Assembly: GCF_002075285.3 (NCBI RefSeq)
Contig: NZ_CP021983.2
Span: 1,470,001-1,502,000, forward strand
Source: Halomicronema hongdechloris C2206
GTDB taxonomy: Bacteria; Cyanobacteriota; Cyanobacteriia; Phormidesmidales; Phormidesmidaceae
Direction of reading: 5' to 3'
Length of the DNA stretch: 32,000 bases
Positions 5,148-24,675 of this stretch are shown here, piece after piece. The position numbers were made by a program, and so were the translations under genes. The notes below the pieces were generated by a model. That model was not told the DNA's origin and did no database searches. It saw nothing but the letters and a program-made list of their open reading frames with translations. Positions within the stretch are counted from its first letter, which is position 1; each line of letters starts with the position of its first letter.

Positions 5148-5550
5148 GCTGCCCTGGACCTGCGGACGGGCATGTCGATTAGCAGTGCTGGATCGCGTCG
5201 CATTGGCAAGGTAGCAATAAATTTTGAATTTTGAATTTTGAATTGAAGCCCGCTGCCTTTTCCGCGCTGCTGCCCTGGACCTGTGGCAGGGCTGGTCGAT
5301 TGGTCGTTAGGTTTTCTGCACTGGGCGCGGCAACCGCGCCCCTACCCTGTCCCCTTACCTCTATCTGCTATCGGCCTACTCGCCCGCCCATCCACCGTTT
5401 GACAGGGAGCCAAACCATTCACTCAACACTCAACACTCAAAATTCAAAATTCAAAACTCAAAATTCAAAATTCAAAACTCAGCCCTCCGGGCAGGCTCCG
5501 CCTTTCTCGAATGCCGTTAGGCTATACACCCCACTACCCCATCACCCCCT
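5148..5550. repeat. Dispersed MITE-like repeat, copy 1. It carries heptamer tandem arrays and a nested ~72-bp hairpin element.
   Basis: 5253-5267 plus 5340-5430 plus 5482-5548 match the reverse complement of 16322-16510 almost base for base (for example CCCTACCCTGTCCCCTTACCTCTATC.GCTATCGGCCTACTCGCCCGCCCATCCACCGTTTGACAGGG). Extra segment 5268-5339 contains the hairpin GGGCGCGGCAACCGCGCCC. GCTGCCCTGGACCTG.GG also occurs at about 5148. Track ORF 5231..5650 is a translation of this repeat. Confidence 0.8.
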
Positions 5551-10148: not shown

Positions 10149-11071
10149 AGGTCGCCATTACTGGAGCCACCGGATTCGTCGGCAGCCGCCTGGTGAAACG
10201 GTTGCAAGAACAAGGGCATGACAGCCTGGTGCTGACTCGCGATGCCAGCAAAGGGCGGCGGGTGTTTCCCACCAGTGCCTTTCCCCGAGTGCAGGTGGTG
10301 GCCTATGAGCCGCTGCAATCGGGAGCCTGGCAAGATGCGATCGCAGGCTGCGACGGCGTCGTCAACCTGGCCGGAGCCCCGATCTCAGAACGGTGGACCC
10401 CAGAGCACAAACAAGCCATGCTCAACAGCCGCCAGATCGGCACCGCCAAAGTAGTCGAGGCCATTGCCAACGCCGAGCCCAAACCCAACGTTCTCGTCAA
10501 TGCCTCCGCCATCGGCTACTACGGCACCAGCGAAACGGCCCGCTTCGACGAAACTAGCGCCCCGGTAGAGGATGACTTTCTCTCCCAAGTCTGCCGGGCC
10601 TGGGAAGCAGAAGCCCACAAGGTCAAAGAGGCTGGGGTGCGCCTGGTGATTCTGCGCTTCGGCATCGTCCTGGGCATGGGTGGAGCCATCGCCCGCATGG
10701 TGCCGCCCTTCCGCCTCTTTGCCGGCGGCCCCATCGGCAGCGGTCGGCAGTGGTTCTCCTGGATCCACCGAGAAGATTTGGTCAGTCTCATCCTCAAGGC
10801 CCTCAGCGAAGACACTATGGCCGGCATCTACAATGCCACCACCCCTCATCCCGTACGCATGGCCGAGCTATGCCATGCCCTAGGAGAGGTACTCAATCGC
10901 CCTTCCTGGCTGCCAGTCCCCGACTTCGTCCTAGAAGCTCTGTTGGGGGACGGGGCTAAGGTGGTGCTCGAGGGCCAGCAAGTATTACCCAAACGCACTG
11001 AAGCCAGCGGCTTCACGTTCCAATATCCCCGCGTAAAAGCTGCCCTGCAAGAGATCCTCACCGATTCTTGA
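10145..11071 (+). CDS. TIGR01777-type SDR/NAD-dependent epimerase-like oxidoreductase (YfcH-like)
   Basis: 308 aa with Rossmann motif VAITGATGFVGSRLV. Length and C-terminal region are typical of the family. Its start overlaps the psb28 stop (ATGA at 10145-10148). Confidence 0.75.
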   Translation: MKVAITGATGFVGSRLVKRLQEQGHDSLVLTRDASKGRRVFPTSAFPRVQVVAYEPLQSGAWQDAIAGCDGVVNLAGAPISERWTPEHKQAMLNSRQIGTAKVVEAIANAEPKPNVLVNASAIGYYGTSETARFDETSAPVEDDFLSQVCRAWEAEAHKVKEAGVRLVILRFGIVLGMGGAIARMVPPFRLFAGGPIGSGRQWFSWIHREDLVSLILKALSEDTMAGIYNATTPHPVRMAELCHALGEVLNRPSWLPVPDFVLEALLGDGAKVVLEGQQVLPKRTEASGFTFQYPRVKAALQEILTDS

Positions 11072-11132
11072 GAGACCAACGCCTCGTCCTCGGTTTATGC
11101 TGAGGGCAGACGCATCTCGCCGGAGGGGGATC

Positions 11133-12133
11133 ATGTCCCAAGGCAACCGGGATCAGAACATCCCCGCGTTGATTGCCGCCTTGCTCATCACCATCGCCCT
11201 GGCAGGGGGAGCCTATTGGTTTCTCGGTAGGCCCCTACTCAGGCAATTCAGCAACAGCCCCGCCCCATCCTCTACCCCCGACAGTACCAACTCCCCGACT
11301 CCTAGCCCTGCCCCCCAAGCAAGGGACAGCCTCAACAGTCTCGATGATCTAGATACCTCACTGCCCAATCCCGCCGTTTTGACCATAGACGGCAGTGTTA
11401 CCCTAGTGGCCCTCGTCAAGCAATTTCAACTGGCCTACACTCAGGTCAACCCCAACATTCCCACCACCTACGGCGTCCCCGCTGGCCAACCCAACGGCAG
11501 CAATGCCGGTCTGCAGCACCTGCTCAATGACGAGGTGGTCATGGCCTTCAGCTCCCGCCCCCTAACTGCTGAGGAGCGCCAGGCCGGACTGCAAGCGATT
11601 CCCTTCGCCCGGGATGCCTTAGCTGTCGTGGTCGGGCAAACCAATCCCTTCAATGACAGCCTCACCCTGAGCCAACTGCAGCAGATCTTCCAAGGGCAAC
11701 TGACCAACTGGTCGGAATTAGGCGGCCCTAATGCCCCGATTCGGGTGATCAATCGCGCCGCCGATAGTGGCACCCATTCTCTCTTCAAAGACCTGGTGCT
11801 GCTGGGACAAGACTTTGCCCCCGATGGCCCCACCTTCACCACCCTGACGCAGGGGATGAAACCACTCCAATGCTGCGAACCCTGGAAGCCAATGGCATTG
11901 GCTACAGCACCGTGCAGCAAGTGGTCGATCAATCTACCGTCAAGATCTTGCCCATCGAGGGAACCTTGCCCACTGATGCAGAAGCGGTACGCCAGGGCAC
12001 CTATCCCCTTAGCCGGGTAGTTTATGTCGTGATAACCAACCCACCAGCCCGGCAGTGGCAAGAGTTCATCGCCATGATGCTCTCTGACCAAGGACAATCC
12101 ATCGTCGAGCGGGTTGGCTTTTTACCCCTGTAG
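11133..12133 (+). pseudogene. PstS-family periplasmic phosphate-binding protein-like gene, frameshifted in the G run 11852-11855
   Basis: ORFs 11097..12020 (frame 0) and 11870..12133 (frame 2) join as ...DGPTFTTLTQG|DETTPMLRTLEANGIGYSTVQQV...GTYPLSRVVYVVI. There is an N-terminal TM/signal anchor IPALIAALLITIALAGGAYWF and the RAADSGTHSLF motif typical of PstS-like PBPs. Confidence 0.65.
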
Positions 12134-12264
12134 ATATGCCTGCAAAATTGAGCCCCGAACAGCTATTGGCTTAGAATTTCGAGCAGGGGGAGTCACGATA
12201 TCGACAGCAATTCTGGGCTTGGGATGAGCGGTGGGCTGGCAAAACGATACGTTAGGAAGAGACA

Positions 12265-12645
12265 GTGATGACCAACAGTGCCGATGACCGACTGAGCCGC
12301 ATTGAGGCCATCGTAGAAGCTAATGCCACGGCCATTGCCGAACTGCAGCAGGCCACGGACTCCGGCTTTGAGCAAACCCGCCAACGAACCGCCGAACTGC
12401 AGCAGACCATGGACTCCGGCTTTGAGCAAACCCGCCAAATCATCGAGCGCGAAGCTGCCGAAGCCATTAGCCTCATCAGCGGTCTAGCCGAGCACCAAGA
12501 GGAAACCGATAGCCGCTTCAACAATCTGCTGCAGGAGGCTCGTGCGGACCGGCAGCGTAACGAAAACGAGCATCAGGCATTTCGGGAGTCCTTTCAGAAT
12601 ATGCTGGCCGAAATTGCCCGTATCTGGCAGCGCCTGGCAGGATAG
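12265..12645 (+). CDS. Hypothetical coiled-coil protein with an internal 18-residue duplication
   Basis: 126-aa ORF containing ELQQATDSGFEQTRQ / ELQQTMDSGFEQTRQ, encoded by a 54-bp-period tandem repeat. I recognise no family. Confidence 0.5.
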   Translation: MMTNSADDRLSRIEAIVEANATAIAELQQATDSGFEQTRQRTAELQQTMDSGFEQTRQIIEREAAEAISLISGLAEHQEETDSRFNNLLQEARADRQRNENEHQAFRESFQNMLAEIARIWQRLAG

Positions 12646-12737
12646 GCCTATACAGTGCCCTTGCTACTCTAGAGATCTATACACCCTCACGCTGCCAAGA
12701 TGTCAGGATCACCGAATTGTGGTATGTTATTGAGCAG

Positions 12738-12921
12738 TAGAAGGGGAGTAGCCCTAGATCCTGGCAGGATCTAGCCGTCTGAATCAACATGCTGGCGATG
12801 AGCCTGGTTCAGATGGCGAATCGATTCCAACTCATAGCTTTGGCTGTCCTACTGCCTAGGCAGGCCAAGATGTGAGTTTGGCGCTAATCAGCATTTTTCG
12901 ATTCGCACGCGAGACCTTCAC
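12738..12921 (+). promoter_or_regulatory. Candidate yybP-ykoY (Mn2+) riboswitch aptamer upstream of mnx
   Basis: GAAGGGGAGTAGCC at 12740-12753 matches the conserved GGGGAGUAGC L1 element. The 3' CGAGACCTTC (12910-12919) closes P1 (GAAGG/CCTTC). A perfect 9-bp hairpin CTAGATCCT-GGC-AGGATCTAG follows L1. GAATC-AACATGC (12781-) pairs with GATTC-GCACGCGAGACC (12900-), resembling the L3/P3.1 consensus. The P3 insert is longer than usual. Confidence 0.5.
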
Positions 12922-13012
12922 TGAGTCCACGGTTAAGTGGGCTTGGTGGGGTCTTTTAATCCTTTAAAGGGATCCGTCATGCCTGCTTAACCACCACATC
13001 ACGGAAACAGGC

Positions 13013-13639
13013 ATGAGCATATTGACCGGATTTACGGCAGGGTTACTCTTGATTACCCTGTCTGAGTTGGGAGATAAGACCTTCTTCATCGGCGCTATTC
13101 TAGCCATGCGCCATTCCCGTCGTTGGGTATTTACCGGGGTGACGGCGGCCCTGTTGGCCATGACCATCCTGTCGGTCCTCATTGGTCAGGTGGTGACGGC
13201 TTTACCCCACGTTTATGTACAAGGAGTCGCCATCGCCCTATTCCTGGGCTTTGGCGGCAAACTGCTTTACGATGCCTGGTCCATGGCTAGGCCAGGGGAC
13301 TTAGACCATGAACAGGCGGATGCCCTGGCAGCAGTCGAACAGCGAGAACAGGGCCTGACCACCTGGTCCACCGGAGCCATTTTGGCTGAGGCCTTCACCC
13401 TTACTTTCATGGCAGAGTGGGGGGATCGCACCCAGCTGGCTACCATTACCCTGGCCGCTGCCCATCATCCCATCGGCATTGTGGCTGGGGCCAGCCTAGG
13501 CCATACCATCACCACCTGCATTGCTGTCATCTGCGGCAAGCTGGTTGCCGGTCGCATCTCTGAGCGCCTCTTGACAGGGTTAGGCGGCGGGTTGTTTGTC
13601 TTATTCGGTCTGATTACCGCCCTGAGGATGGGCACCTGA
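13013..13639 (+). CDS. mnx: UPF0016/TMEM165/GDT1-family Mn2+(Ca2+) transporter (Mnx/SynPAM71-like)
   Basis: 208 aa, multi-TM, with two copies of the family signature E-x-G-D-[KR]-[TS]: ELGDKTFF and EWGDRTQL. Confidence 0.85.
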   Translation: MSILTGFTAGLLLITLSELGDKTFFIGAILAMRHSRRWVFTGVTAALLAMTILSVLIGQVVTALPHVYVQGVAIALFLGFGGKLLYDAWSMARPGDLDHEQADALAAVEQREQGLTTWSTGAILAEAFTLTFMAEWGDRTQLATITLAAAHHPIGIVAGASLGHTITTCIAVICGKLVAGRISERLLTGLGGGLFVLFGLITALRMGT

Positions 13640-13646
13640 GTCAGCT

Positions 13647-15035
13647 TCACCAGGATAATTGCTGTCCTCTGAGCCCGGCAGGGGCTACTAAGCTGTAGCG
13701 GTGCAGCAGGGAAGGCAGAATGTCGTAGAGCTGAGCCTGCTGCAGCACCTGCCCCTGCTTGGGATCCTGGGGATCATAGAAGATCATCAGGCCCTGGGGA
13801 GCGTGATTAGCGTCGTCGGGACCGGTGTCATTCTCGACCGCATAGATGCTGTCAAAGCCGACGCTACCGATGGAACGCCAGGCCAGATCATCGAAATAAA
13901 CGATCAAATCGGGGGCTCGTCCCCGCACCTTTTGGTAGATCTGCTGGGGCTTGAAGGCCTCCACCTTGAGGGGACATCCCGCCGGACCCGGCAGCTGACT
14001 CAGCTGGTCAATCAACTGGTCGCGGGTGGCCTCATAGGCGGCCATGGGCACCACTCCCTGGGGTTCGCGGCCCTTGACGTTGAGAAAGATGCGAGCGTAA
14101 TAGCCCCCGGCTCCCCAAGCTTGGGTCTGCTCCCAGTCCACCGCAACCTGATCCAAGGATTGGGGAGTGTCCGGCCGTTGCTTCAGAGTGAGGTAGCCCT
14201 GGGCCTGCAACCATTCATTGATGCAAATGCCCCCCATCAACGGTTGGGCCCCATGGTCTGAGACTACCAGCACCGCCGTGTCCTGATCGCAGTGCTCTAG
14301 CAGGGAGCCTACCCGCTGATCCACATGGCGGTAGTAGTCATAGATGGCCGTGGCATAGGGCGAGTCGGGCTCATACTGGGGATGGCGCGGGTCCATCGGT
14401 TTCCAGAAGGCATGGTGAATCCGATCGACCCCCATGTCGACCAGCATCAGAAAATCGGGACCGTCTTGAACAATCAGCTTCTCTGCCAGGGTGAAGCGCT
14501 GGTCGCAGAGCCGATAGAGATTTTCCAGAATCTGCTTTTTATCATCAGAGCGAAAATTGGGCACATCCATCATGAAGTCCGGCATCCAGCTGCGCAGCTG
14601 CTGTCCCAGCTCTGGCGGATGGGTAAAGGGCACCTCGGGGCTGGGAGTGAGAAAGCACGATACCAACGAGCCATTGACCGGATAGGGGGGCGACGTCCCC
14701 GGCACACTCAACACCGCCACCTGCCAGCCGGCCTCCCCCAGCAAGTCCCACAGTCGCGGAAATTTCACCGCCCGTCCATCAGAGATGGCCATACTGTGAT
14801 AATTACGGTCCTGACGGTTGCGAAACCCATAGATACCCAACTCCCCTGGATCGCGTCCGGTCATCATGCAGCTCCAGGCCGGTACCGTAATGGCTGGAAT
14901 GCTGCTCTCGAGACGACCATAGCTACCCTGGGCCATGAGGCGGCTGAGGTGGGGCAACTGAGAGCGCCACTGCTCGAACACCAGGGAAGGCTCCATGCAG
15001 TCGAGGCCGATAATCAGCAGGCGGGGAGTAGGCAT
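13647..15035 (-). CDS. Alkaline-phosphatase-superfamily nucleotide pyrophosphatase/phosphodiesterase (PF01663-like)
   Basis: The ORF runs 13647..15176. I place the start at ATG 15035 (MPTPRLLIIGLDCMEPSL), which removes the overlap with the upstream gene. LLIIGLDC and VLVVSDHG are the metal-site motifs of this superfamily. Confidence 0.7.
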   Translation of the reverse strand: MPTPRLLIIGLDCMEPSLVFEQWRSQLPHLSRLMAQGSYGRLESSIPAITVPAWSCMMTGRDPGELGIYGFRNRQDRNYHSMAISDGRAVKFPRLWDLLGEAGWQVAVLSVPGTSPPYPVNGSLVSCFLTPSPEVPFTHPPELGQQLRSWMPDFMMDVPNFRSDDKKQILENLYRLCDQRFTLAEKLIVQDGPDFLMLVDMGVDRIHHAFWKPMDPRHPQYEPDSPYATAIYDYYRHVDQRVGSLLEHCDQDTAVLVVSDHGAQPLMGGICINEWLQAQGYLTLKQRPDTPQSLDQVAVDWEQTQAWGAGGYYARIFLNVKGREPQGVVPMAAYEATRDQLIDQLSQLPGPAGCPLKVEAFKPQQIYQKVRGRAPDLIVYFDDLAWRSIGSVGFDSIYAVENDTGPDDANHAPQGLMIFYDPQDPKQGQVLQQAQLYDILPSLLHRYSLVAPAGLRGQQLSW

Positions 15036-15073
15036 AGTAATAGCCAGTAGCGATCTCCTTATTGTAGGCGTCC

Positions 15074-16255
15074 CTAGGACTGGGATAACCGTTTCACCGT
15101 TTCCCCCCCTAGGCGCTGGTGGGTCTCGGCCAACAGCTTGGGAATCTTCTGGGCGTGAGGGCTGCGGGCTAGGCACTTCGATAAGTCCAAGCGGTCAATA
15201 TCGCCAGCTTGTTGACCGGGAAACCAATGGCCGCCATTGCCCAGGAGATTGTAGCGGGCCTTGGCATACTCGTCCATATCAAAGGCCACCAGCAGGTTAT
15301 GCAGCCAAAGGATAGTGGGAATGTTGATGCGCCCAGGAGTATCTTCCGGCGTCGGCAGTCCCACCTGCCAGGTGCGTAGCCAATCGGTGCCTAGGGCATC
15401 GCTGGCAGCTTGCTCCAGTCGCTGCACAATTGGCGGTAGGATTTCTGCGGCTTGCTCTAACAGCGGCAAGACCTGCAAATGCTCATCAAAGTCGCTGGGG
15501 CGAGCCGCCCCTAGGCTGAGGGTATGGACCTGGGGATGGCTGAGGCAGAAGAGATCGTTGAAGACCATGGGGCTGAGGGGCGCACAGAGGTCAACTAGCT
15601 TCTGGGGCGGGTTGTAGAGATGGCCGCCCTTGTCTGAAGGACTGATGATGAATACCCCCATGTCATGGCGATTGGCGGCTTCAATGGCAGGCCAGTTGTC
15701 CTGATTGATGTAGTACCAGTGCAGATTGACGTAGTCGAATTGGTTGGTCTCGATGGCCTGCAGAATCACCCAGGTGGGGGCATGGGTAGAGAAGCCGATG
15801 TGGCCAATGCGTCCAGCCCGTTGAAAGGCTTGGGCCACCTCTAGGCAACCTCCCGGTCGGACGGTGTAGTCCAGCAGGTCTGGGGTGTTGATGCCATGGA
15901 TGCCGAGCAGATCGATGTGCTCCAGCCGTAGATTCTGCAGGGATTGCTCTAAGGTGCGACGAAAGTCTTGGGGATCGGGCTTGGGGGAAATTTTGGTCTG
16001 GACGATCAGCTTTTCCCGGGGCAAGCGGGGCAGAATCCGCCCCAACTGGATCTCAGAAGTACCATAGCCCCGGGCTGTTTCAATGTGAGTGATGCCGACC
16101 TCTAAGGCCCGGCGAATGGTGGCCTCGAGGTTAGCTTGGTTTTTCTGGGGAATTTGCCAGTGGGGACTGTCTTTCCAGGAATGCTGATAGCGCATGCCGC
16201 CGCAGGAAAAGACGGGCATGGGTAAATTGGTGCGGCCAAAGCGTCGATACTGCAT
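15074..16255 (-). CDS. Aldo/keto reductase family oxidoreductase with a C-terminal extension
   Basis: 393 aa: MQYRRFGRTNLPMPVFSCGGMRY...GITHIETARGYGTSE...IDLLGIHGIN...GHIGFSTH, an AKR fold pattern. Confidence 0.8.
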   Translation of the reverse strand: MQYRRFGRTNLPMPVFSCGGMRYQHSWKDSPHWQIPQKNQANLEATIRRALEVGITHIETARGYGTSEIQLGRILPRLPREKLIVQTKISPKPDPQDFRRTLEQSLQNLRLEHIDLLGIHGINTPDLLDYTVRPGGCLEVAQAFQRAGRIGHIGFSTHAPTWVILQAIETNQFDYVNLHWYYINQDNWPAIEAANRHDMGVFIISPSDKGGHLYNPPQKLVDLCAPLSPMVFNDLFCLSHPQVHTLSLGAARPSDFDEHLQVLPLLEQAAEILPPIVQRLEQAASDALGTDWLRTWQVGLPTPEDTPGRINIPTILWLHNLLVAFDMDEYAKARYNLLGNGGHWFPGQQAGDIDRLDLSKCLARSPHAQKIPKLLAETHQRLGGETVKRLSQS

Positions 16256-16321
16256 TGGTCAAATGTATGGAGGCTCTCTTCCACTGGTTCTATCACAGAA
16301 CTATAAAGAAGCACTTCCCCT

Positions 16322-16510
16322 GGGGTGATGGGGTGTATAGCCTAACGGCATTCAAGCAAGGCGGAGCCTGCCTGGAGGGCTGAGTGTTGAGTGTTGAGTG
16401 TTGAGTGTTGAGTGAATGGTTTGGCGCCCTGTCAAACGGTGGATGGGCGGGCGAGTAGGCCGATAGCGGATAGAGGTAAGGGGACAGGGTAGGGGCGCGG
16501 GAAAAGGCAG
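16322..16510. repeat. Dispersed MITE-like repeat, copy 2 (inverted relative to copy 1)
   Basis: This is the reverse complement of copy 1 (see 5148-5550). Its heptamer array is (GAGTGTT)x4 at 16381-16413. It lacks the nested 72-bp hairpin element. Track ORF 16293..16571 is a translation of this repeat. Confidence 0.8.
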
Positions 16511-16631
16511 CAAATATCTCGGGGGCACAAGTCTGGTCGGGGTAGGAGTCTGGTTCGGTAGAAGGCGGCAACCTAAGCGGCCTTCAGATCACCCTTTCAT
16601 CCTTTCTCCTTTTGCCTTCTGATTTTCTATC

Positions 16632-16666
16632 GTTTCCGTCCCCTTGCGGGGTAATGGGTTTTGAAC
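16632..16666 (-). CRISPR. Solitary CRISPR-like repeat (a single unit, no array)
   Basis: The minus-strand reading is GTTCAAAACCCATTACCCCGCAAGGGGACGGAAAC (35 nt). It has a GTTCAA..ACCC 5' end, an internal CCCC-GCAA-GGGG hairpin and a 3' GGAAAC. That layout matches cyanobacterial Cas6-type repeats such as Synechocystis CRISPR2 GTTCAACACCCTCTTTTCCCCGTCAGGGGACTGAAAC (quoted from memory). I found no second copy in the window. Confidence 0.4.
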
Positions 16667-16906
16667 CCCCTCGATCTGGAGCCCTTACAGGGCAAAGGTT
16701 TCAGGGGGGTGTTTTCGCTAGGGTCTCGTGGAAAGCAAAATTATTGCGAATCCCTGTCAATAGACCTCTGTGGAAAACACCTGAAACCTTTACGTAGCAA
16801 GCGATTCGCTAGGGTTAACAAAACTATGCGGTTTTCAAGGATCGGAAGACCCCCACGAAAGCGAGAGATTTACGAACATATTAGTCGCTGAATATTTGAA
16901 AATCAA

Positions 16907-17632
16907 TCAAATCGCAGGATTTCGCAATATTCCATAGTTATCCAGCTCTCTCGCCGCTTCCGACATCATCTGCTGTCGCACCACCAGCGGCGCAATCACC
17001 TCCCCCTGCGGTCGCCAATCGCGCAGTCGCATCGTTACATTAATATCCCCTACCCGCATCCAGCCCCGGTAGTAGGCATCTGTAGCGGGACGCTGGGCCA
17101 GTACCTGCAAAATCTCCTGCTGTTCCGTTGCCTCCGCCACCTCAATATGCACCAATTGCGCCAACTCCCCATAGCTCACCGGCCCAAAGGTGGGGTGGCG
17201 CTCCGTATCCTGTACATACCCGTGGGCAAACTCCGGCTCAAACCGCATGATCAGCAGTGCTTTGGGCAGATAAAAATTAAATCCCCAGGCCGCTGCCAAC
17301 TGCACCTGCACCTGTTCTGGGGTAGGCAGTTGCCCGGTGTCCCGCAGGGTTTTGAGCTCGGGGGGCACCGCTGGATCGCCCCAGGGTAAGACCCTCAGGT
17401 GGGGGGAGCGGATGCGATCCAGGCGGTAGTTATGCCAGCCAATGTGGCCATCGGGATCTTGGCCATAGGCGCTGAGGTACTTGGCCCGGCGGGCATAGTG
17501 CACACACACTGGATACACCGTCACCGTGGCGGTGCGCCGTTGGCGAACCACCCAGTTGTCAAACTGAATCACGCCGCCATCGGGGGTTTGCCAGAGGGCT
17601 TCGATTTGCTGCTGGTAGCTGTCCACCCTCAT
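16907..17632 (-). CDS. WYL-domain protein with C-terminal extension and no N-terminal HTH (CRISPR-associated WYL-like)
   Basis: GHIGWHNYRLDRIRSPHLRVL is the WYL signature, followed by a ~150-aa C-terminal domain. Only ~65 residues precede the motif, so there is no room for a wHTH. The 5' end is interrupted by a MITE. ATG 17632 sits at the MITE junction, and the TTG at 17668 used by the track lies inside the MITE. Confidence 0.7.
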   Translation of the reverse strand: MRVDSYQQQIEALWQTPDGGVIQFDNWVVRQRRTATVTVYPVCVHYARRAKYLSAYGQDPDGHIGWHNYRLDRIRSPHLRVLPWGDPAVPPELKTLRDTGQLPTPEQVQVQLAAAWGFNFYLPKALLIMRFEPEFAHGYVQDTERHPTFGPVSYGELAQLVHIEVAEATEQQEILQVLAQRPATDAYYRGWMRVGDINVTMRLRDWRPQGEVIAPLVVRQQMMSEAARELDNYGILRNPAI

Positions 17633-17756
17633 TGACTGACAAAACCTGCTAGAACCCAGACTATCCAAAGGGTCAGGGAACCTGCCCCCTACAGCATCCG
17701 AAATCTGGTAAGGGCGCGGAAACCGCGCCCAATGCAGAATCTTTTGTCAGTCAACC
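17628..17756. mobile_element. 129-bp MITE with 13-bp perfect terminal inverted repeats and a flanking 11-bp direct repeat
   Basis: The TIRs are TTGACTGACAAAA (17632-17644) and TTTTGTCAGTCAA (17742-17754). The direct repeat AGCTGTCCACC occurs at 17617-17627 and 17757-17767. An internal hairpin GGGCGCGGAAACCGCGCCC (17712-17730) is related to the one at 5323-5341. Confidence 0.65.
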
Positions 17757-17860
17757 AGCTGTCCACCTGCTCTTGCATCTCATCTGAAAGAATATAGTGC
17801 AAATGCAGAAAAATCCGATTGAAACCTTAATTTACGAACTTTTCACTCTAAAAAACTTGA

Positions 17861-18586
17861 CTATACTCGCCGTTTTTGATCAACTAATGCAAATGCAGGT
17901 GAAATGAGACCAACTACAGCCGCAGTTAAATTTAATCCCTGGATAAAAGAGCTTTCGGGTCCAATAGTTATAAAAACTATCAATGAAATCAACATAACGA
18001 CAAGAGATATGGCACCCACGTACCAGAGTAGGTATGATTTACGTAAAAGAGAGGACTGACTATTTCTGACTGGATCAGTCTTGCTCAAGCAAGTATAAGA
18101 GTAATCCGTTTCATTCAATACGTGGTAGAGAAAATCATCTGAACGATTTGGATCGTATTTTGGTTTCAATTCAAATGTGTAAACTGACTCAATACCAAGT
18201 GCAAGGCATACGGCAAAAACATCTATGCTTGGTCTTTTAGGAGCAGTCGTTAAATCAACTATCCATTTTGTATTTTTCTGACTTTTGATAACCTGGTACA
18301 ATTCTCGCTTCAGATTTGAGTACTCAATCGGAATTAATTCCCTTTTCAAAAGTTGCTCATTTATTTGTTTGTAAACACCAGAGAATCGCGAAGAAAGGTC
18401 GCCTAGTCGGCCCCATATTTTGCTAGAAATGTTACTTGCTTCAGAATCAGTAATTCCTGTTTCAGTTCCTTTGATGTGTATCAGTTTGATTGCTTCTATT
18501 CCCATATTTTCATAGGCATATGAAATCGCATTAATGTACGAATCGACATTGGGAGAGAAGAGAAAAACTAAAAGTGTTTTAAGCAT
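17861..18586 (-). CDS. CARF-like sensor domain fused to two C-terminal transmembrane helices (putative cyclic-oligonucleotide-gated membrane effector)
   Basis: I place the start at ATG 18586 (MLKTLLVFLFSPNVDSY...), which overlaps the upstream stop in ATGCTTAA. The N-terminal half is Rossmannoid: beta1 LLVFLFSP, IEAIKLIHIKG, and WIVDLTTAPKR, which fits the CARF motif [DN]x[ST]xxx[RK]. The C-terminal TM helices are LLWYVGAISLVVMLISLIVFITIG and LNLTAAVVGLISPAFALV. Confidence 0.6.
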   Translation of the reverse strand: MLKTLLVFLFSPNVDSYINAISYAYENMGIEAIKLIHIKGTETGITDSEASNISSKIWGRLGDLSSRFSGVYKQINEQLLKRELIPIEYSNLKRELYQVIKSQKNTKWIVDLTTAPKRPSIDVFAVCLALGIESVYTFELKPKYDPNRSDDFLYHVLNETDYSYTCLSKTDPVRNSQSSLLRKSYLLWYVGAISLVVMLISLIVFITIGPESSFIQGLNLTAAVVGLISPAFALVDQKRRV

Positions 18587-18971
18587 CAAGAAAATCCTCC
18601 AATTCTCTAAACTGACGAACACAATTCTTGCCACTTGTCTTAGCCAGCTTTAAAGCAAAGTAAGCTTCTCTTGGAGTTTTTCCAAGTCCTATTGATAGTG
18701 TGCTTTTGGCCTTTTTCTGAAATTCAAATCTAATTTTTTCGATCAGATTGAGAGTATCGTCTGTTTTGCTAATGCGGGCTAAAATATTATCTCCACCTGT
18801 AAATATTATTTCTGCCTCGCAAGACTCTATAAGCTCATATTCTAGCCAAAGCATCGCTTTATGAAATACTTTTGAAAATTCGAAAATTTTAGCTGATTCA
18901 TTTCTCAACATAAGATATTCAAGATGATGTCCAACATCATCACCATCGGCAGCAAAATAGAGTTTAGTCAT
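18579..18971 (-). CDS. Minimal Cas10-palm/GGDEF-like nucleotide cyclase (mCpol-like), 130 aa
   Basis: LYFAADGDDVGHH is the first acidic metal-binding motif. IIFTGGDNILARI is the GGDD/GGDEF-equivalent. LSIGLGKTPREAYFALKLAKTSGKNCV is the SxG...AK..GKN tail common to GGDEF and Cas10 palm domains. No other domain fits in 130 aa. Confidence 0.65.
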   Translation of the reverse strand: MTKLYFAADGDDVGHHLEYLMLRNESAKIFEFSKVFHKAMLWLEYELIESCEAEIIFTGGDNILARISKTDDTLNLIEKIRFEFQKKAKSTLSIGLGKTPREAYFALKLAKTSGKNCVRQFRELEDFLDA

Positions 18972-19224
18972 ACATTTTCTTTCAAATAATCAATGGTTTG
19001 CCGCCTAAATTTTAAGTTAGGAAGAACAAGGATAAATTCCATATAAAGAGACAAGTGTTAGGTGTCTGCCACCTTTATCATATTAATTAAGCAAGGATAT
19101 CGATTAGTCATGAAGTCAGATCATGGCTGATTTAAGAACAACGATACTTTTGTATGAATTGCACTTATCTTATATCAAGTCTCCATTCCTTGCCTCCCAA
19201 TAAATCAGGTCTTGTATCCAGTTT

Positions 19225-19695
19225 GTGTTACCTTCTCACCACCTGGGGGCGGCCCTGCTGGTGGTCGGCCCACCCGACAGCGGTAAGTCGGTACTCAGCC
19301 ATGCCCTGTTTCGGGCCTTGCTGCCGGAGTATCCGGACGTGTTTTTGCAGCGAGCCCAGTGGGATGGGGAGGGCAACTGGACTTTAGAGCTGCCGGAGTC
19401 AGCAACAGCAGCGGATCGGGAGGCCTTCAAGCTGTTCTATAAGGGCGGCTTGACGGCGGGCTTTTTCCCGTATCAGGCCCAGGCGATTTTGCAGCTGCGG
19501 CGACGGAAGCCGCTGGTGATAGTGGATGTGGGCGGCAGGGTGCAGCCGGAGAAGGTACCGATTTTGGAGGCGTGTTCCCATTACCTTGTACTCAGCTCAA
19601 AGCTCCGGGAGGTGAAGCAATGGCATGAGTTTTGCGGCGATCGGGGCAATTTATCGCCATTAGCAGTTATCCACAGTAGAATGGCACTGACATAA
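19225..19695 (+). CDS. Small P-loop NTPase, family not recognised. The 3' end is formed by the IS4 terminal repeat.
   Basis: It has a GTG start at the AT-rich/GC-rich boundary, Walker A VVGPPDSGKSVL and Walker B-like PLVIVDVGG. The last ~6 codons and the stop (..SRMALT*) lie inside the IS inverted repeat beginning at 19679, so the native C-terminus is probably lost. Confidence 0.55.
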   Translation: MLPSHHLGAALLVVGPPDSGKSVLSHALFRALLPEYPDVFLQRAQWDGEGNWTLELPESATAADREAFKLFYKGGLTAGFFPYQAQAILQLRRRKPLVIVDVGGRVQPEKVPILEACSHYLVLSSKLREVKQWHEFCGDRGNLSPLAVIHSRMALT

Positions 19696-21158
19696 GCCGT
19701 ATCAAGCAACTAGTTTAGCTTTCGCAACCGAGCGCGGTTCTTGCATTCTGGGGAACGGTTTGGGGCGACGTTTGACCACTCGGGGTTCTGAGCGGTGCGG
19801 TCGAAAAGGGATAATCAACTCCCGCACAGCGTTTAACAAGGCTTGGTAGCCTTGCGGTCGCGCAGATGGCGAGAGATGCAGCAACTCGGGTCGGAAATGA
19901 TTGAATTGTTGCCGCGTGCCCTGTAGGGAGAGCCGCAAAGCCCCGACCTCGGCATCGGCGCCGGCTTCCCACATCAGCGTTCGCAGCAGATTGTAGGCCA
20001 ACAAATGCACCCAAATACTTTTAGTCACCATGGTAGGGGTTTTGGCGGCAACCATCTCCATGGCTAAGGTGGTTTTGAGATGTCTGAGATTGACTTCAGC
20101 GGCTTGCCAACGCAACTGATAGAGTTGGGCCAATTTGGCTCTAGGATAGCGTTTGGGGTCTATCAAGGTGGTCACTACCACAAAGTTGCTCGGGCGAAAC
20201 CCAGGGACTTGAATCGAGAGATAGACTTCGCGCACCTCAAGCGCCTCGGGCAACGCCTCAAACTCCTCCGGTGAAAGGGCATGAGGACATTTTTTCGGGC
20301 GCTGCCACCGGACGATGTGGTCGCCAATGCCTAGCTTTTTGCCGCGCCTGAAATCACAACGGCGTTGATGATGCTTGCGAAAGACGGCATCGGCTCCCAT
20401 CGCGGTGACTCCAGCCAAATCGACATAGGTGCCGTAAGCCGAATCGGCCACCACCACATCCTCTGGGCACAACGTCTGATAGAGGTGACGGGCTAAGCGC
20501 CATTCACTGACCCGAAAGGGAGCCATTGCGACTTCCAATACCGCTCCTGTGGTCACACAAAACCACACTTGCAGCTTCAGGAGGGGAAAGCCACAGCCGC
20601 TCTTTTGATTACTGTGCTGGGGATACGCCCGTTGATTCACTTCGGTATCGCTCATCAAAATCGTCGTCGCATCAAACGCCCTCACGACCCGACCGCACCA
20701 CCGCTGAGCTGGGGATACCTGCGCCTGTAAAGCCGTGGCGACGCGCTTTACAAGCGGTGGAAAAATCGATTCGGGCCAGCGTTTGCGGGCTTTGCTGTAG
20801 GCGCCCGTATCCGCCGACGGCACGCTCAATCCAGCCACCCGCATCCAGGTCGTCACGCGCTTGACAGCATGGCTCAAACTGCTGTCCGAATCGAGAACTT
20901 GCGACAGCCAACTCCACAGCACCACTATCGGGGTGTAAAGCACTTGGCGATAAGTGACTCCCTGGGCCTCCAGCACCGCCTGAATCTCTGCTTCCGGCAG
21001 CACATCGCTAAACGGTAGACCGATGCTGTTCTGGTATTGCTCCTTGAGGACTGCTGCACGATTCGGCATCATAGAGACATGGTTATGGGCTTCGACGCTT
21101 TGATTCTTACAGATCAAGCGCTTGAAGCCTTTTTTGCTCTCTTATGTCAGTGCCATTC
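19679..21158. mobile_element. IS4-family insertion sequence (~1.48 kb), apparently intact
   Basis: It has 18-bp perfect terminal inverted repeats: GAATGGCACTGACATAAG at 19679-19696 and its complement CTTATGTCAGTGCCATTC at 21141-21158. They enclose one transposase ORF. There is no matching target-site duplication on the two flanks. Confidence 0.75.
19702..21072 (-). CDS. IS4-family DDE transposase
   Basis: The ORF runs 19702..21117, and I place the start at ATGATG 21072 (MMPNRAAVLKEQYQ...). The DDE context is VVRAFDATTI, VVVADSAYGTY and YQLRWQAAEVNLRHLK (a YxxR...E...K-type motif). Confidence 0.85.
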   Translation of the reverse strand: MMPNRAAVLKEQYQNSIGLPFSDVLPEAEIQAVLEAQGVTYRQVLYTPIVVLWSWLSQVLDSDSSLSHAVKRVTTWMRVAGLSVPSADTGAYSKARKRWPESIFPPLVKRVATALQAQVSPAQRWCGRVVRAFDATTILMSDTEVNQRAYPQHSNQKSGCGFPLLKLQVWFCVTTGAVLEVAMAPFRVSEWRLARHLYQTLCPEDVVVADSAYGTYVDLAGVTAMGADAVFRKHHQRRCDFRRGKKLGIGDHIVRWQRPKKCPHALSPEEFEALPEALEVREVYLSIQVPGFRPSNFVVVTTLIDPKRYPRAKLAQLYQLRWQAAEVNLRHLKTTLAMEMVAAKTPTMVTKSIWVHLLAYNLLRTLMWEAGADAEVGALRLSLQGTRQQFNHFRPELLHLSPSARPQGYQALLNAVRELIIPFRPHRSEPRVVKRRPKPFPRMQEPRSVAKAKLVA

Positions 21159-22058
21159 AGCCCTAGTAGACCCCCAGCAGTTGCAGGAGTGCTTCTTGAG
21201 TTGGGTGCAGCAGCTCACGGAGCAGTTGGAGATTAACCTGATTCATCTCGACGGGAAAACGGCGCGGGGGTCCTATGACCGAGAGAGGTCGTTGAGAGCC
21301 TTGCAGACCGTCAGTGCCTGGGCCTCAGAGCATCATCTGGTGCTGGCGCAACACCGCGTCGAAAGCACCTCGAATGAGATTACCGCTATTCCCGAATTGC
21401 TCAACCTGCTGGATCTCGACGGTGCGATTATCACCCTGGATGCCATGGGCACGCAACGGGAGAGTGCTGCCCAGATCCGGGAGCAAGGAGGGGACTACAT
21501 CCTGGCACTGAAAGGCAATCAAGGGACCCTCCACCACGCGGTGAAGACCTTCTTTCAGGAGGCGGAGCGCACTCAGTGGGCAACCCTGGATTATAGCTAC
21601 AGTAGCACCACAGAAGCCGGTCATCATCGCATTGAACATCGTCAGGTCTGGGCGGTGCCGCTGAGTCAAGTGCCCGAGTTGCCCACTCACCAGACCTGGA
21701 GCGGCCTGGCTACCGTTGTGATGGTCAGCGCGACCGCCAATTGTGGAACAAGACGACCCATGAGGTGTGCCTCTACATCAGCAGTTTGCCAGCTGAGGCC
21801 AGTGTGTTGGCCCAAGCGATCCGCTCCCATTGGGGCATCGAAAATAGCTTGCACTGGGTGTTGGATGTCACCTTTCGGGAAGACTCGAGTCGGATTCGCA
21901 GCGGTCATGGTCCTGAAAACATGGGCCTCTTACGGCGTTTGGCCCTGAATTTACTCAACCGGGCTCCCTCTAAGCAGAGTCTCAAACAGAAACGCTATCG
22001 CGCTGCCATGGACAATGACTTTGTCATCGAGGTGTTGCTTGCTCATGACGTTGGCTAA
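21159..22058 (+). pseudogene. ISAs1-family (H-repeat-type) transposase, 5'-truncated by the IS4 element or a rearrangement, and frameshifted at about 21731
   Basis: The sequence begins mid-protein at LVDPQQLQECFLSWVQQL...LIHLDGKTARGSYD...ITLDAMGTQRESAAQI..GGDYILALKGNQGTL. It then shifts frame to RQLWNKTTHEVCLYISSL...IRSHWGIENSLHWVLDVTFREDSSRIR. About 95 N-terminal codons are missing. The element's right end probably lies between 22059 and about 22235. Confidence 0.8.
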
Positions 22059-22210
22059 GGCCAGCGAAACGGCCCTGATAAGGGGACACAAACGATTGGA
22101 GGACACGACAATCCAGCTCATGCAGCTCTCAGACTATTCCAACGGGGTTGGAATCACGTTTTCAGCATCTAAAACTGGCATGACTCATAAAATCCTGATC
22201 TGGATTCTGA

Positions 22211-22444
22211 GCATTATGTCAAGCTGATTTACGTGCGATTGCCCTGTATGAGGGGCAGACCTTAGAGGCTGTAGTGACAGCCATTAAAGGTAACAGAGTC
22301 ACTTATGAAATGTTAGGCACTATCAAGCTAACGGCTAGGGAACCTCAAAAGGCCAAGCTACTGTCGGAGGGTCAGATTGTCACTGTCAAAGTCACGGCTC
22401 TAAAACCAGATGGATCACCTAAGAACGTCAAATTTACGGGTTAA
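22211..22444 (+). pseudogene. Orphan 3' gene fragment with no start codon, ending 5 nt before the TIR-SAVED ATG
   Basis: The open frame reads ..DLRAIALYEGQTLEAVVTAIKGNRVTYEMLGTIKLTAREPQKAKLLSEGQIVTVKVTALKPDGSPKNVKFTG* with native-like composition. The only ATG is internal. It abuts the ISAs1 right end. I do not recognise the family; the pattern is beta-rich and OB/S1-like. Confidence 0.3.
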
Positions 22445-22449
22445 TTATT

Positions 22450-23718
22450 ATGAATACTGCGCCAACCACTTCCTATCGGTCTCCCTTTGTTTCTACCTTC
22501 CTATCCCACTCCTCTGCCGATAGCGATCTGGCGGCAGCCGTGACCAAACGCCTAGGGCGTCGCGGTGTTTTAACCTGGCTTGATAAAAATGAACTACTCG
22601 AAATGGGGTCGCTGGATGGGGTTCTGAAACAGGCCGTCCAGCAGCAGGCAACCTTGACGCTTTTTCTATCTGAAGCCTCTCTAAAGTCTGAGTGGTGTAG
22701 AGACGAACTCAGATGGGCGATCGAGGCTCAGGCGGGGACCGATCATTTGCTGCCGGTATATTTGGGAGATCCCCTGAAGCTGATCAAAAGCCATCCTCTG
22801 CTGCGCGAAAGGTTTCTGCATGCCGATGGCAATCGCGTCAATCAACTGGGCTATGCCTGCCAGCAGGAGGCCGGCGAACCGAATCCAGATGCGATCGCAC
22901 AAAAAATTGCCGCCACCGCCTACCACCGTTCCATCCCTGACCCCTGGTCTGAGGTGGTGATTGTGTTAGACCAACGGGGCAGTGGCCCCCGCCGTGGCCT
23001 CCCAAAACTTCCTGCCAACATCGCCAGTCTCCAAGCCCCCACCCTCACCTTTCGCCCCGATACCAGATCCCGCCAGATGCGAGAACTGCTAACTGGCGAC
23101 GATTGGGACGATATGGCCAACACCCTGAAACAGTCCCTATCTAACGCCCTCGGCACAGTGCGGGGAGAGCCTCGTAAAGTACGGGTTCTCGGCAACGCCC
23201 AGACAGGGCTGGTATGGGCCGTGGGCCGCCACTTTGACCGCACCACCGCTGCCGACCTCTACGGCTATGATCGAGATGGTCTAGCCGTCACGAATCAAGG
23301 GCAAGCAAGGCACACCCCCTTACTGGGCGGAAATCCGGAGAGAGCCCAGCCAGCCAACGATAAAGCAAAAGCACCAGAGGTTAAGTTGCCCACGGTCGCT
23401 CTGGGCATTGGGTCACAGCGGCGATACGGTTCTCAAGTCCAAGACGCTGGGCCTGATCTGCCGTTGTTTTGGATAGAGTCTGGCTCAATCGAAGACTCCA
23501 AACAGGCTATGGAGCTAGTGGCAGATATCGTGGCCTCTGTCGAACAGTTGCGGCGAGAGTATGGCACTCGGGAACTCGTCCTGTTTTGGACCACCGCCAA
23601 CCATGTGGCCCTGCTGGCCGCCGCTAACCTGACCTCCCATGTCATTCCTAAAATCAAATATATGGAATGGGATCATGCCAATGATAGGTACGTGCATCTT
23701 CCCATGTTGGGGGATTGA
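22450..23718 (+). CDS. TIR-SAVED fusion protein (cyclic-oligonucleotide-sensing NADase-type effector)
   Basis: The N-terminus is a TIR_2 pattern: FLSHSSADSDLAAAVTKRLGRRGVLTWLDKNEL...LFLSEASLKSEWCRDELRWAIE. The C-terminal ~250 aa show two CARF-like halves typical of SAVED: VRVLGNAQTGLVWAVGRHFDRT and ELVLFWTTANHVALLAAANLTSHV..IKYMEWDH. It contains a HIP1 site at 22891. Confidence 0.7.
   Translation: MNTAPTTSYRSPFVSTFLSHSSADSDLAAAVTKRLGRRGVLTWLDKNELLEMGSLDGVLKQAVQQQATLTLFLSEASLKSEWCRDELRWAIEAQAGTDHLLPVYLGDPLKLIKSHPLLRERFLHADGNRVNQLGYACQQEAGEPNPDAIAQKIAATAYHRSIPDPWSEVVIVLDQRGSGPRRGLPKLPANIASLQAPTLTFRPDTRSRQMRELLTGDDWDDMANTLKQSLSNALGTVRGEPRKVRVLGNAQTGLVWAVGRHFDRTTAADLYGYDRDGLAVTNQGQARHTPLLGGNPERAQPANDKAKAPEVKLPTVALGIGSQRRYGSQVQDAGPDLPLFWIESGSIEDSKQAMELVADIVASVEQLRREYGTRELVLFWTTANHVALLAAANLTSHVIPKIKYMEWDHANDRYVHLPMLGD
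23256..23348. repeat. Direct repeat copy A (inside the SAVED-coding region)
   Basis: A 93-bp stretch CCTCTACGGCTATGATCGAGATGGTCTAGCCGTCACGAATCAAGGGCAAGCAAGGCACACCCCCTTACTGGGCGGAAATCCGGAGAGAGCCCA recurs at 24501-24593 with one mismatch. Weaker similarity extends ~15 bp upstream and ~30 bp downstream. Confidence 0.9.
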
Positions 23719-23814
23719 TAGACCTTCCATTTCAAGGCTTATTACTTTGAGCAGCATCGTCTGACAATCAGTCAGGCTATGCTGATAGCAAGACTGTCTC
23801 TGGGACCAGCCACC

Positions 23815-24435
23815 ATGCCGTTTAGCGGATTCAAGAGCCTGGGCGAAACTCTCAAAGAATTTGAGATTGTCTACACCGAAGCGAACTTTATCGAGGGTGT
23901 GCCGTTCGCTATCTCAGACTATTTCCGGCAAGACCTAAGGCTCATGTTGGATGATGCTGTGGTAGACAACTCCGAGTACGCGATTTGCGAGAACCTGGTG
24001 TATCCCATTCTCAAAGAAATCTGGAAGCAGTATCGGCGCAACTTTATTCTCTGGAGTCATGAGTTTCTCAACTGCGATGCTCAGCTGTCAGGGTTTCCCG
24101 AGTATATTTTGGCGCGGCGATCGCCCCTCGGCAAAATCGTCTTCGACAAGCCCTACTTCGTGCTGGTAGAAGCCAAGCAAGACAACTTTGATGCTGCCTG
24201 GAGCCAGTGCCTCGCTGAGATGATTGCCGCTCAGCGCTTGAACGACAATGAACAACTCGTGATTTTCGGCATTACCTCCAACGGCGATCGCTGGCAGTTT
24301 GGCAAGCTGGATGGAACTCAGTTCACCCTTAACCGAACTTTCTACACCATTCAAGAGTTGGACACGTTGTTTGCAGCAGTGAACTACGTGTTTCAGCAGT
24401 GCGAGCAACAGTTGAATGCCCTCATTGCTGTTTAG
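23815..24435 (+). CDS. PD-(D/E)xK nuclease-fold protein, type I restriction R-subunit N-terminal (HSDR_N)-like
   Basis: GFPEYILARR...PYFVLVEAKQDNFDAAWSQCLAEM gives a (P)E ... ExK arrangement, and the size is ~200 aa. The start is either ATG 23815 or ATG 23779. HIP1 sites lie at 24117 and 24284. Confidence 0.55.
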   Translation: MPFSGFKSLGETLKEFEIVYTEANFIEGVPFAISDYFRQDLRLMLDDAVVDNSEYAICENLVYPILKEIWKQYRRNFILWSHEFLNCDAQLSGFPEYILARRSPLGKIVFDKPYFVLVEAKQDNFDAAWSQCLAEMIAAQRLNDNEQLVIFGITSNGDRWQFGKLDGTQFTLNRTFYTIQELDTLFAAVNYVFQQCEQQLNALIAV

Positions 24436-24500
24436 ACCTCTGGTATATCGGCGACAGATGTTATAAATCATCCTGCCTTTCCCTCACCCACTGCCGCCAA

Positions 24501-24593
24501 CCTCTACGGCTATGATCGAGATGGTCTAGCCGTCACGAATCAAGGGCAAGCAAAGCACACCCCCTTACTGGGCGGAAATCCGGAGAGAGCCCA
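24501..24593. repeat. Direct repeat copy B (a remnant of SAVED-coding sequence upstream of glcF)
   Basis: See copy A. The offset is exactly 1245 bp. In frame it reads NLYGYDRDGLAVTNQGQAKHTPLLGGNPERA, a gene fragment rather than a functional ORF. Confidence 0.9.
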
Positions 24594-24675
24594 TCCAGTC
24601 AATAATAGAGCAAAAGAACCAATGGTCAGGAATCCAGCGCGGTACCCTGAAAGAGAGCACGCCGATAGCCTCACC

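Follow-up and report, generated by a model that had tools for sequence, protein, structure and literature searches.

An AT-rich island of about 1.46 kb (17773..19238) lies within the 32,000-nucleotide stretch of Halomicronema hongdechloris C2206 analysed here (contig NZ_CP021983.2, positions 1,470,001 to 1,502,000; hereafter the window, numbered from its first letter). The island is filled by two overlapping minus-strand genes, the first encoding a minimal CRISPR polymerase (mCpol) and the second a CARF protein with C-terminal transmembrane (TM) helices, here termed CARF-TM. This two-gene operon is very probably a type II Panoptes anti-phage guard system, and sequence comparison places the pair in a divergent subclade of that type. 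The find itself is ordinary: systems of this kind were described computationally between 2015 and 2020, counted in 2025 and characterised mechanistically in 2026. The copy represents a distinct subclade that can be used to test the generality of signalling by 3'3'3'-cyclic triadenylate (cA3), and it provides a natural case in which a guard cassette resides within a type III CRISPR locus. It also illustrates that a strongly AT-rich block free of HIP1 sites need not be recent, as low G+C content at third codon positions (GC3) has been kept through about one synonymous substitution per site. The proteins XM38_014000 and XM38_014010 of the same strain match the two island translations with 100% identity, and in public records the product of the cyclase gene has already been assigned to the mCpol (minimal CRISPR polymerase) domain proteins.

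A stand-alone palm cyclase and a CARF membrane protein

The first gene (18579..18971, minus strand) encodes a protein of 130 residues, a predicted constitutive cyclic-oligoadenylate synthase, whose identity as mCpol is unambiguous from profile matches and modelled fold. It matches Pfam PF18182 (E 1.8e-25, model positions 1-113 of 114) and NCBIfam NF033576 (E 4e-21), with weaker matches to the palm-2 domain of Cas10 (Pfam Cas10-Cmr2_palm2, E 4e-9) and to GTP cyclohydrolase III. A profile of 26 mCpol homologs recovers the Panoptes OptS mCpol from the PDB (9mnr, E 2.6e-19). The AlphaFold (AF2) model of the protein (predicted local distance difference test, pLDDT, 95.6) superimposes in Foldseek on 9pd0, 9mnr and 9nwn with TM-scores of 0.83-0.92 and root-mean-square deviations of 1.4-1.8 Å, with GGDEF domains and Cas10 appearing lower down the list. 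A preliminary description of this DNA, made from the sequence alone, had proposed a stand-alone palm cyclase of the mCpol kind, and the Pfam, NCBIfam and OptS structural matches bear this out. The protein comprises a single palm domain, with no HD domain, zinc finger or domain B/D4.

Across the 26 mCpol homologs, D9-G10-D11, G59-G60-D61 and S113-G114-K115 are invariant, and N62 is at least 90% conserved, such that the subclade reads GGDN. Thus, the conservation of the acidic and GGD residues that was anticipated in the preliminary description is observed, with D9-G10-D11 and G59-G60-D61(N62) predicted to bind metal. Indeed, all of the motifs quoted there for the two proteins are present in the translations and fall on invariant columns of their families.

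The second gene (17861..18586, minus strand) encodes a putative effector of 241 residues, in which a CARF domain (residues ~1-182) precedes two C-terminal TM helices. The PADLOC model PDLC01992 (CARF_m9--CARF_TM) matches it over its full length with an E-value of 3.7e-67. In the AF2 model (pLDDT 82.5), strands and helices alternate in a Rossmann-like fashion, and after them come two long helices, at residues ~185-208 and ~213-240, that are hydrophobic and conserved in the alignment. A sequence search against PDB chains returned nothing meaningful for CARF-TM, and structure comparison was needed: the top Foldseek matches in the PDB (best E 2e-4) are nearly all CARF proteins and include the ring nuclease Sso2081 as well as Cad1, Can2, Csm6, Card1, Csa3, Cam1 and Cdn1. 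The domain order proposed previously, with CARF at the N-terminus and two TM helices at the C-terminus, is therefore upheld by PADLOC, by Foldseek and by the two modelled helices.

Residues D15, Y17 and N19 and the motif D111-x-T113-x-x-x-K117 are invariant in 28 CARF-TM homologs from two clades, a set that includes the characterised protein of Cylindrospermum stagnale. Basic residues (Arg/Lys), read directly from the sequence, precede the first TM helix and follow the second, from which the CARF domain should face the cytoplasm and the protein is predicted to adopt an N-in/C-in topology. The ATG start is the right one, since every homolog begins with M-x-K-T-L at that position; an upstream GTG at 18634, which would give 257 residues, was rejected on the same grounds. 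The family comprises 267 clusters at 50% identity among 1.84 billion proteins, nearly all of 240-280 residues, and the subclade to which the Halomicronema protein belongs is 241-246 residues long and lacks an insert of ~20-30 residues within the CARF domain.

Organization and conservation of the gene pair

The mCpol stop and the CARF-TM start overlap by 8 nt (ATGCTTAA, 18579..18586, minus strand), as read directly from the sequence and in agreement with the preliminary description, which had two minus-strand genes filling the block and overlapping at 18586-18579. A GGAGGA motif sits 9 nt upstream of the CARF-TM ATG, and the overlap is consistent with translational coupling of the two genes. 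Overlaps are also found in relatives, of 8 nt in the metagenomic contig L015 and of 4 nt in C. stagnale and in a Nostoc plasmid. The AT-rich spacer upstream of mCpol (18972..19224, minus strand; 33.6% G+C) presumably supplies the cassette with a promoter of its own.

In all nine scanned loci with upstream DNA (three from genomes and six from metagenomes), mCpol lies directly upstream of CARF-TM, abutting or overlapping it, which confirms the earlier view of a self-contained two-gene unit. The same pair occurs on the Nostoc flagelliforme plasmid pNFSY01, on the C. stagnale chromosome and in the closest relatives, the metagenomic contigs L015-L017 and L019. Its surroundings differ from locus to locus, with a nitrogenase gene and a GGDEF protein at one, an ABC transporter and BioY at another and integrases at others. 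Since these neighbours are unrelated, the pair behaves as an autonomous cassette. Its G+C content is below that of the flanks in most loci examined (L003, L012, L013, L002 and L005), for example 0.40 versus 0.61 in an Anaerolineae metagenome-assembled genome and 0.31 versus 0.41-0.44 elsewhere (0.41 in C. stagnale). No relatives of the pair were found in IMG/VR contigs or GenBank phages.

Relative to the closest relative, the ratio of nonsynonymous to synonymous substitution rates (dN/dS) is 0.079 for mCpol and 0.12 for CARF-TM. Purifying selection on both genes argues that the Halomicronema copy is functional, and the possibility that the pair or its truncated flanking genes are pseudogene remnants was ruled out by dN/dS values of 0.07-0.12. 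We note that in one metagenomic contig (L009) the CARF-TM homolog is present in two pieces (59-445 and 1913-2065) with approximately 1.4 kb between them, a sign that the effector gene may have taken up an insertion.

Comparison with Panoptes, Cas10 and Cam1

Type II Panoptes is represented by the mCpol and CARF-TM pairs of C. stagnale PCC 7417, Sphingomonas sp. and Ahniella affigens (Gruschow et al., PLoS Biol 2026, PMC13577387). The three mCpols synthesize cA3 slowly and constitutively, CARF-TM alone is toxic and is rescued by active mCpol, but not by a D63N/D64N mutant, and cA3 co-purifies with CARF-TM (PMC13577387). The system is triggered by Acb2, Crn4 or phage Acb1 and its TM domain is essential; for the A. 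affigens and C. stagnale homologs, the pair alone gave an Acb1/Acb2-dependent phenotype in a host without a type III system (PMC13577387). A CARF-2TM gene shares an operon with 40% of mCpol genes (Panoptes, Nature 2025, PMC12657218), operons of mCpol with CARF-2TM were described computationally in 2015-2020, as related in PMC13577387, and PADLOC (2023) holds a model of the partner family, filed among the CARF census families. The preliminary suggestion that the partner was uncharacterised and possibly uncatalogued therefore fails, as the family is catalogued and three pairs have been characterised.

Among the tested pairs, our sequence comparison covered that of C. stagnale. The C. stagnale effector, Cylst_4288 (263 residues), was identified by a family profile search (E 3e-50) and confirmed by its genomic context, namely an adjacent, overlapping mCpol. 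It aligns end to end with the Halomicronema CARF-TM at 24% identity (E 4e-11), and the two mCpols share 27% identity (E 3e-13), with D61 aligning to the catalytic D63. The two systems have in common a stand-alone mCpol of ~125-130 residues whose gene overlaps the next one, which encodes a CARF domain at the N-terminus and a TM hairpin at the C-terminus, as well as end-to-end homology, retention of the catalytic aspartate and of the CARF motifs, an autonomous cassette and a cyanobacterial representative. Unlike the C. stagnale pair, the Halomicronema cassette is embedded in, and truncates, type III CRISPR accessory genes.

Type I Panoptes comprises the OptS mCpol and the S-2TM-beta effector OptE (Nature 2025, PMC12657218; PDB 9mnr, 9pd0 and 9nwn). 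The cyclase fold is shared (the TM-scores given above, at ~28% identity), and presumably so is the concept of a membrane effector under decoy or guard control. However, OptS reads QAADG where the Halomicronema mCpol reads TGGDN, the OptE sensor is a beta-rich nucleotide-binding domain, whereas PADLOC and Foldseek identify the Halomicronema sensor as a Rossmann-like CARF domain, and the signal in type I is a dinucleotide, in contrast to the cyclic trinucleotide that would be expected here by analogy with type II.

Cas10 of type III CRISPR-Cas has a homologous palm/cyclase domain (Foldseek also matches Csm1/Cmr2) and carries out cyclic-oligoadenylate (cOA) chemistry, but the Halomicronema mCpol is a palm alone, without HD domain, zinc finger, domain B/D4, Csm/Cmr partners or CRISPR RNA. 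Moreover, Cas10 is activated by target RNA, whereas mCpol is likely to be constitutive, as are its characterised homologs. Cam1 resembles CARF-TM in that a CARF sensor is fused to TM helices and in the membrane-directed growth arrest that is predicted for CARF-TM. The TM segment of Cam1 lies, however, at the N-terminus (the solved CARF part comprises residues 42-206), whereas in Halomicronema CARF precedes the TM helices, and Cam1 appears in the Foldseek list for CARF-TM only at rank 27, as a match to the CARF fold. Cam1 is activated by ligand binding (cyclic tetraadenylate, cA4), whereas the CARF-TM family of type II Panoptes is inhibited by its ligand.

A proposed guard mechanism and its alternatives

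The preliminary description envisaged a cyclase feeding a CARF-gated effector and left activation and guard logic open. Guard logic operates in the characterised homologs, and by analogy the ligand would hold the Halomicronema effector off. In this mechanism, mCpol would slowly and constitutively convert ATP into a cyclic oligoadenylate, most probably cA3, and so maintain it at a low level. CARF-TM would reside as a dimer in the inner membrane, anchored by its C-terminal helical hairpin, with the cytoplasmic CARF domain binding the ligand and the effector thereby kept inactive. A phage sponge (Acb2-like) or a phosphodiesterase or ring nuclease (Acb1-like or Crn4-like), deployed against CBASS or type III signalling, would deplete the ligand. 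The apo form of CARF-TM would then change conformation, oligomerize, perturb the envelope and arrest growth, thereby aborting the infection.

Several observations weigh against this assignment. The Halomicronema proteins are divergent from the C. stagnale pair, with the low identities given above, the C. stagnale CARF domain carries the ~20-30-residue insert that the Halomicronema subclade of 241-246 residues lacks, and the C. stagnale mCpol reads AGDD where Halomicronema has GGDN. The product of the GGDN subclade could differ from cA3, since the published inactive mutant changed both aspartates and the second position is here naturally asparagine; the identity of the messenger is the main uncertainty of the mechanism. 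In addition, a gene for a TIR-SAVED protein lies 3.2 kb from the cassette. A bioRxiv study of 2022 reportedly found at least one TIR-SAVED to be activated by cA3, and, if this holds for the neighbouring protein, a constitutive supply of cA3 would be awkward beside it. Lastly, no sigma-70 consensus was matched on the minus strand upstream of mCpol (18972..19224), and a scan of the minus strand for promoter and terminator consensus sequences produced nothing convincing.

One alternative is a guard architecture that operates with another messenger, where the GGDN subclade would use cA2, cA4, cA6 or a mixed nucleotide and so avoid a clash with neighbouring cyclic-nucleotide effectors such as TIR-SAVED. 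In addition to the nearby TIR-SAVED gene, the 27% identity to the cA3-producing C. stagnale enzyme, the near-invariant N62 and the CARF domain without insert are compatible with such a switch, and type I mCpols produce dinucleotides, such that the product does vary within the mCpol family. Nevertheless, all three of the tested type II mCpols, from a cyanobacterium, Sphingomonas and Ahniella, make cA3 in spite of their diversity, and the two clades do not differ in the CARF motifs D15/Y17/N19 and D111/T113/K117. We regard a different messenger as unlikely.

Somewhat less probable still is that the system follows an activation logic, with mCpol silent until infection and its cyclic oligoadenylate then switching CARF-TM on, in the manner of Cas10-Cam1 or of the TM effectors of CBASS. 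Activation is the default for CARF effectors, including the Foldseek neighbours Cam1, Can2, Csm6 and Card1, all of which are ligand-activated, and the Halomicronema copy is divergent from the pairs that were tested. On the other hand, the 130-residue palm has neither a sensor domain nor an infection-detecting partner, the mCpols of three diverse type II pairs are constitutive, the effector that was tested is toxic when apo, and neither clade departs from the ligand-binding motifs.

That CARF-TM works instead for the neighbouring type III CRISPR-Cas system as one of its ancillary effectors, sensing cOA from Cas10 with mCpol as an accessory or remnant, merits hardly any credence: although a single gene separates the pair from cas10 in its closest relative, the window flanks encode Crn3-AAA, WYL, TIR-SAVED and PD-DExK proteins and the PADLOC model is listed among CARF census families, the pair recurs without cas genes (at the nitrogenase/GGDEF, ABC transporter/BioY and integrase loci and on the C. 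stagnale chromosome), its composition is foreign to the CRISPR locus, and the cassette disrupted genes of that locus instead of joining them, with no cas10 in the window.

Composition and age of the island

A two-state likelihood fit delimits the island to the bounds given above, with a G+C content of 35.5% inside and 59.5% outside, which corroborates the sharp break in composition over ~1.45 kb noted previously; the span initially assigned to it, 17768-19224, likewise has a G+C content of 35.5%. Along the window, the G+C profile drops from ~0.59 to 0.33-0.39 between ~17.75 and ~19.2 kb, and the remaining 1457-bp windows of the stretch have a mean G+C content of 57.5% (standard deviation 2.9%) and a minimum of 50.2%. 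Only short, chance-level repeats were found when the island ends were searched for terminal repeats and target-site duplications, and the window contains no tRNA gene and no CRISPR array-like repeats.

The preliminary description had also taken the absence of HIP1 sites from the island, against at least 12 elsewhere, as support for recent acquisition. The window does contain exactly 12 such sites, but only 0.55 would be expected in 1.46 kb (probability of none, 0.58) and none occur anywhere in 10345-22890. Their absence from the island is therefore weightless, and as a sign of foreignness it was dropped, given that the surrounding 12.5 kb is free of HIP1 in any case.

The island is old, not recently acquired. 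It is present at the identical site in the metagenomic contigs L015-L019, which represent at least three related lineages, with the relatives' synteny being AAA (88% identity), mCpol-CARF-TM and WYL (84%). In L015-L018, mCpol is 86% and CARF-TM 77% identical to the Halomicronema proteins, and in L019 the values are 73% and 77%. Low G+C content was measured across L015 and, in L019, for the genes of the pair; L015, in which both flanks are present, is equally AT-rich, with a G+C content of 0.34-0.36 in the island and 0.58-0.62 outside. The number of synonymous substitutions per site (dS) is equal for the island genes and the flanks (0.8-1.1), and therefore the insertion predates the split of these lineages. 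The GC3 of the island genes is 0.25-0.31, compared with ~0.68-0.69 for the flanks and the host, and its persistence through a dS of ~1 may be due to slow amelioration or to an advantage of low expression under selection.

In the Halomicronema lineage, an autonomous, AT-rich mobile cassette inserted where the crn3/csx3-AAA and TIGR03985-WYL genes of a type III CRISPR-Cas locus diverge, at the cost of their 5' ends. Cassette and flanking genes have been passed on together since then, and purifying selection has acted on them.

A decayed type III CRISPR accessory region

The genes on either side of the island are both truncated on the side that faces it. Downstream of CARF-TM lies the C-terminal half of a WYL CRISPR-associated gene of the TIGR03985 family (16907..17668, minus strand; NCBIfam TIGR03985, E 1.5e-96), which matches positions 205-436 of the 437 in the PADLOC WYL model and aligns to residues ~262-503 of a 505-residue Nostoc edaphicum protein (tblastn and the annotation of plasmid pNe_2). 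Its helix-turn-helix region is gone, and its dN/dS relative to L016 is 0.11. On the opposite side, the P-loop part of a crn3/csx3-AAA gene remains (19225..19695, plus strand), without the Csx3 ring-nuclease domain. This remnant matches positions 107-246 of the 286 in the PADLOC Csx3-AAA model (E 3.2e-58), aligns to residues 127-274 of the 317-residue Nostoc Crn3 of pNe_2 with 70% identity (BLASTP) and has a dN/dS of 0.069. Its C-terminal end has been lost at an insertion sequence, by ~43 residues relative to the Nostoc protein and by ~57 relative to L015.

An uninterrupted counterpart, for which the preliminary description had recommended a search, is provided by N. edaphicum pNe_2, where intact crn3 (317 residues) and TIGR03985 (505 residues) genes are divergently arranged 281 bp apart, without insert, in a type III CRISPR-Cas locus. 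From the truncated alignments of both flanking genes to pNe_2, it follows that the island stands in place of the promoter region between the divergent genes and of the 5' portion of each, the Csx3 domain included. The AAA gene of L015 still has the final 33 residues of this domain and is directly followed by a cas10 fragment (Csm1_B, E 3.4e-29) at the position where the window has an IS4 element. This element encodes an IS4-family DDE transposase of 471 residues (19702..21117, minus strand; Pfam DDE_Tnp_1, E 3e-14) that abuts the AAA remnant. No match to cas10 was found in the window, nor were RAMP (Csm/Cmr) genes, and a type III effector module is represented there by accessory remnants alone. 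The island is thus set in a decayed type III CRISPR accessory region.

The earlier statement that the window holds no Csm or Cmr genes and no array is thus correct as far as it goes, but it misleads as to context, since the flanks are truncated type III accessory genes. Similarly, the claim that the pair is CRISPR-independent holds for other genomes, in which the cassette is autonomous, but describes poorly a locus where it lies between such genes and where the closest relative carries it one gene from cas10.

Farther along the plus strand, and outside of the cassette, are an orphan TIR-SAVED effector gene (22450..23718; Pfam TIR_2 and SAVED, PADLOC SAVED5--SAVED_TIR E 1.7e-92) and a gene for a Cas-associated PD-DExK protein (23779..24435; PADLOC PD_DExK E 4.5e-46). 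TIR-SAVED is without a partner cyclase or cas10 in the window, and a search for its ligand through sequence matches to solved structures matched only the TIR domain (Cat1 and plant TIRs).

We note that the Crn3/Csx3 ring-nuclease domain has been lost exactly at the junction with the island. By way of speculation, a toxin that is repressed by its ligand might be incompatible with a ring nuclease made by the same cell. It is conceivable, if rather improbable, that the long residence of the cassette in a type III locus reflects a functional coupling, in which Panoptes would directly guard the adjacent cOA-signalling CRISPR system when phages deploy ring nucleases or sponges, with loss of the Crn3/Csx3 domain tolerated or selected on account of that incompatibility, or, as a variant, with a messenger other than cA3 that is orthogonal to TIR-SAVED. 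Such a relationship between a Panoptes guard and type III CRISPR has been raised as a hypothesis in published work.

Additional features of the locus

The WYL reading frame follows CARF-TM in the same orientation, at a distance of 192 nt here and of 42 nt in L015, and read-through transcription of the Panoptes operon may now account for its expression. Between the stop codon of CARF-TM and the WYL start is a perfect G+C-rich hairpin, GGGCGCGG-AAA-CCGCGCCC, at 17711-17731, and close to it are a 13-nt perfect inverted repeat (17632-17644 and 17742-17754) and an 11-nt direct repeat (17617-17627 and 17757-17767). Beside the IS4 gene, a second DDE_Tnp_1 transposase is encoded on the plus strand by overlapping open reading frames (ORFs) at 21037-21948 and 21741-22058, and has probably been split by a frameshift.

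A direct repeat of 139 nt with 91% identity (23243-23381 and 24488-24626) has one copy inside the SAVED part of the TIR-SAVED gene and the other downstream of the PD-DExK gene, reaching the start of a CCG/4Fe-4S oxidoreductase ORF at 24622. The repeat has the appearance of a gene fragment that was duplicated in a rearrangement or cassette exchange, which it now marks. Elsewhere in the window, the N- and C-terminal domains of FrhB/FdhB lie on consecutive ORFs (7823-8332 and 8359-9051) that may represent a split or frameshifted gene, and a Ser/Thr kinase-WD40 protein (5594-7615) has strong PADLOC matches to the PD-T4-6 kinase (E 1e-112), which may reflect generic kinase similarity only. Heptanucleotide tandem repeats with TCAACAC and TCAAAAT units occupy intergenic positions 5423-5485, and ORF translations (HSTLNTQHSTLNTQ) suggest a similar repeat tract at ~16.35-16.57 kb.

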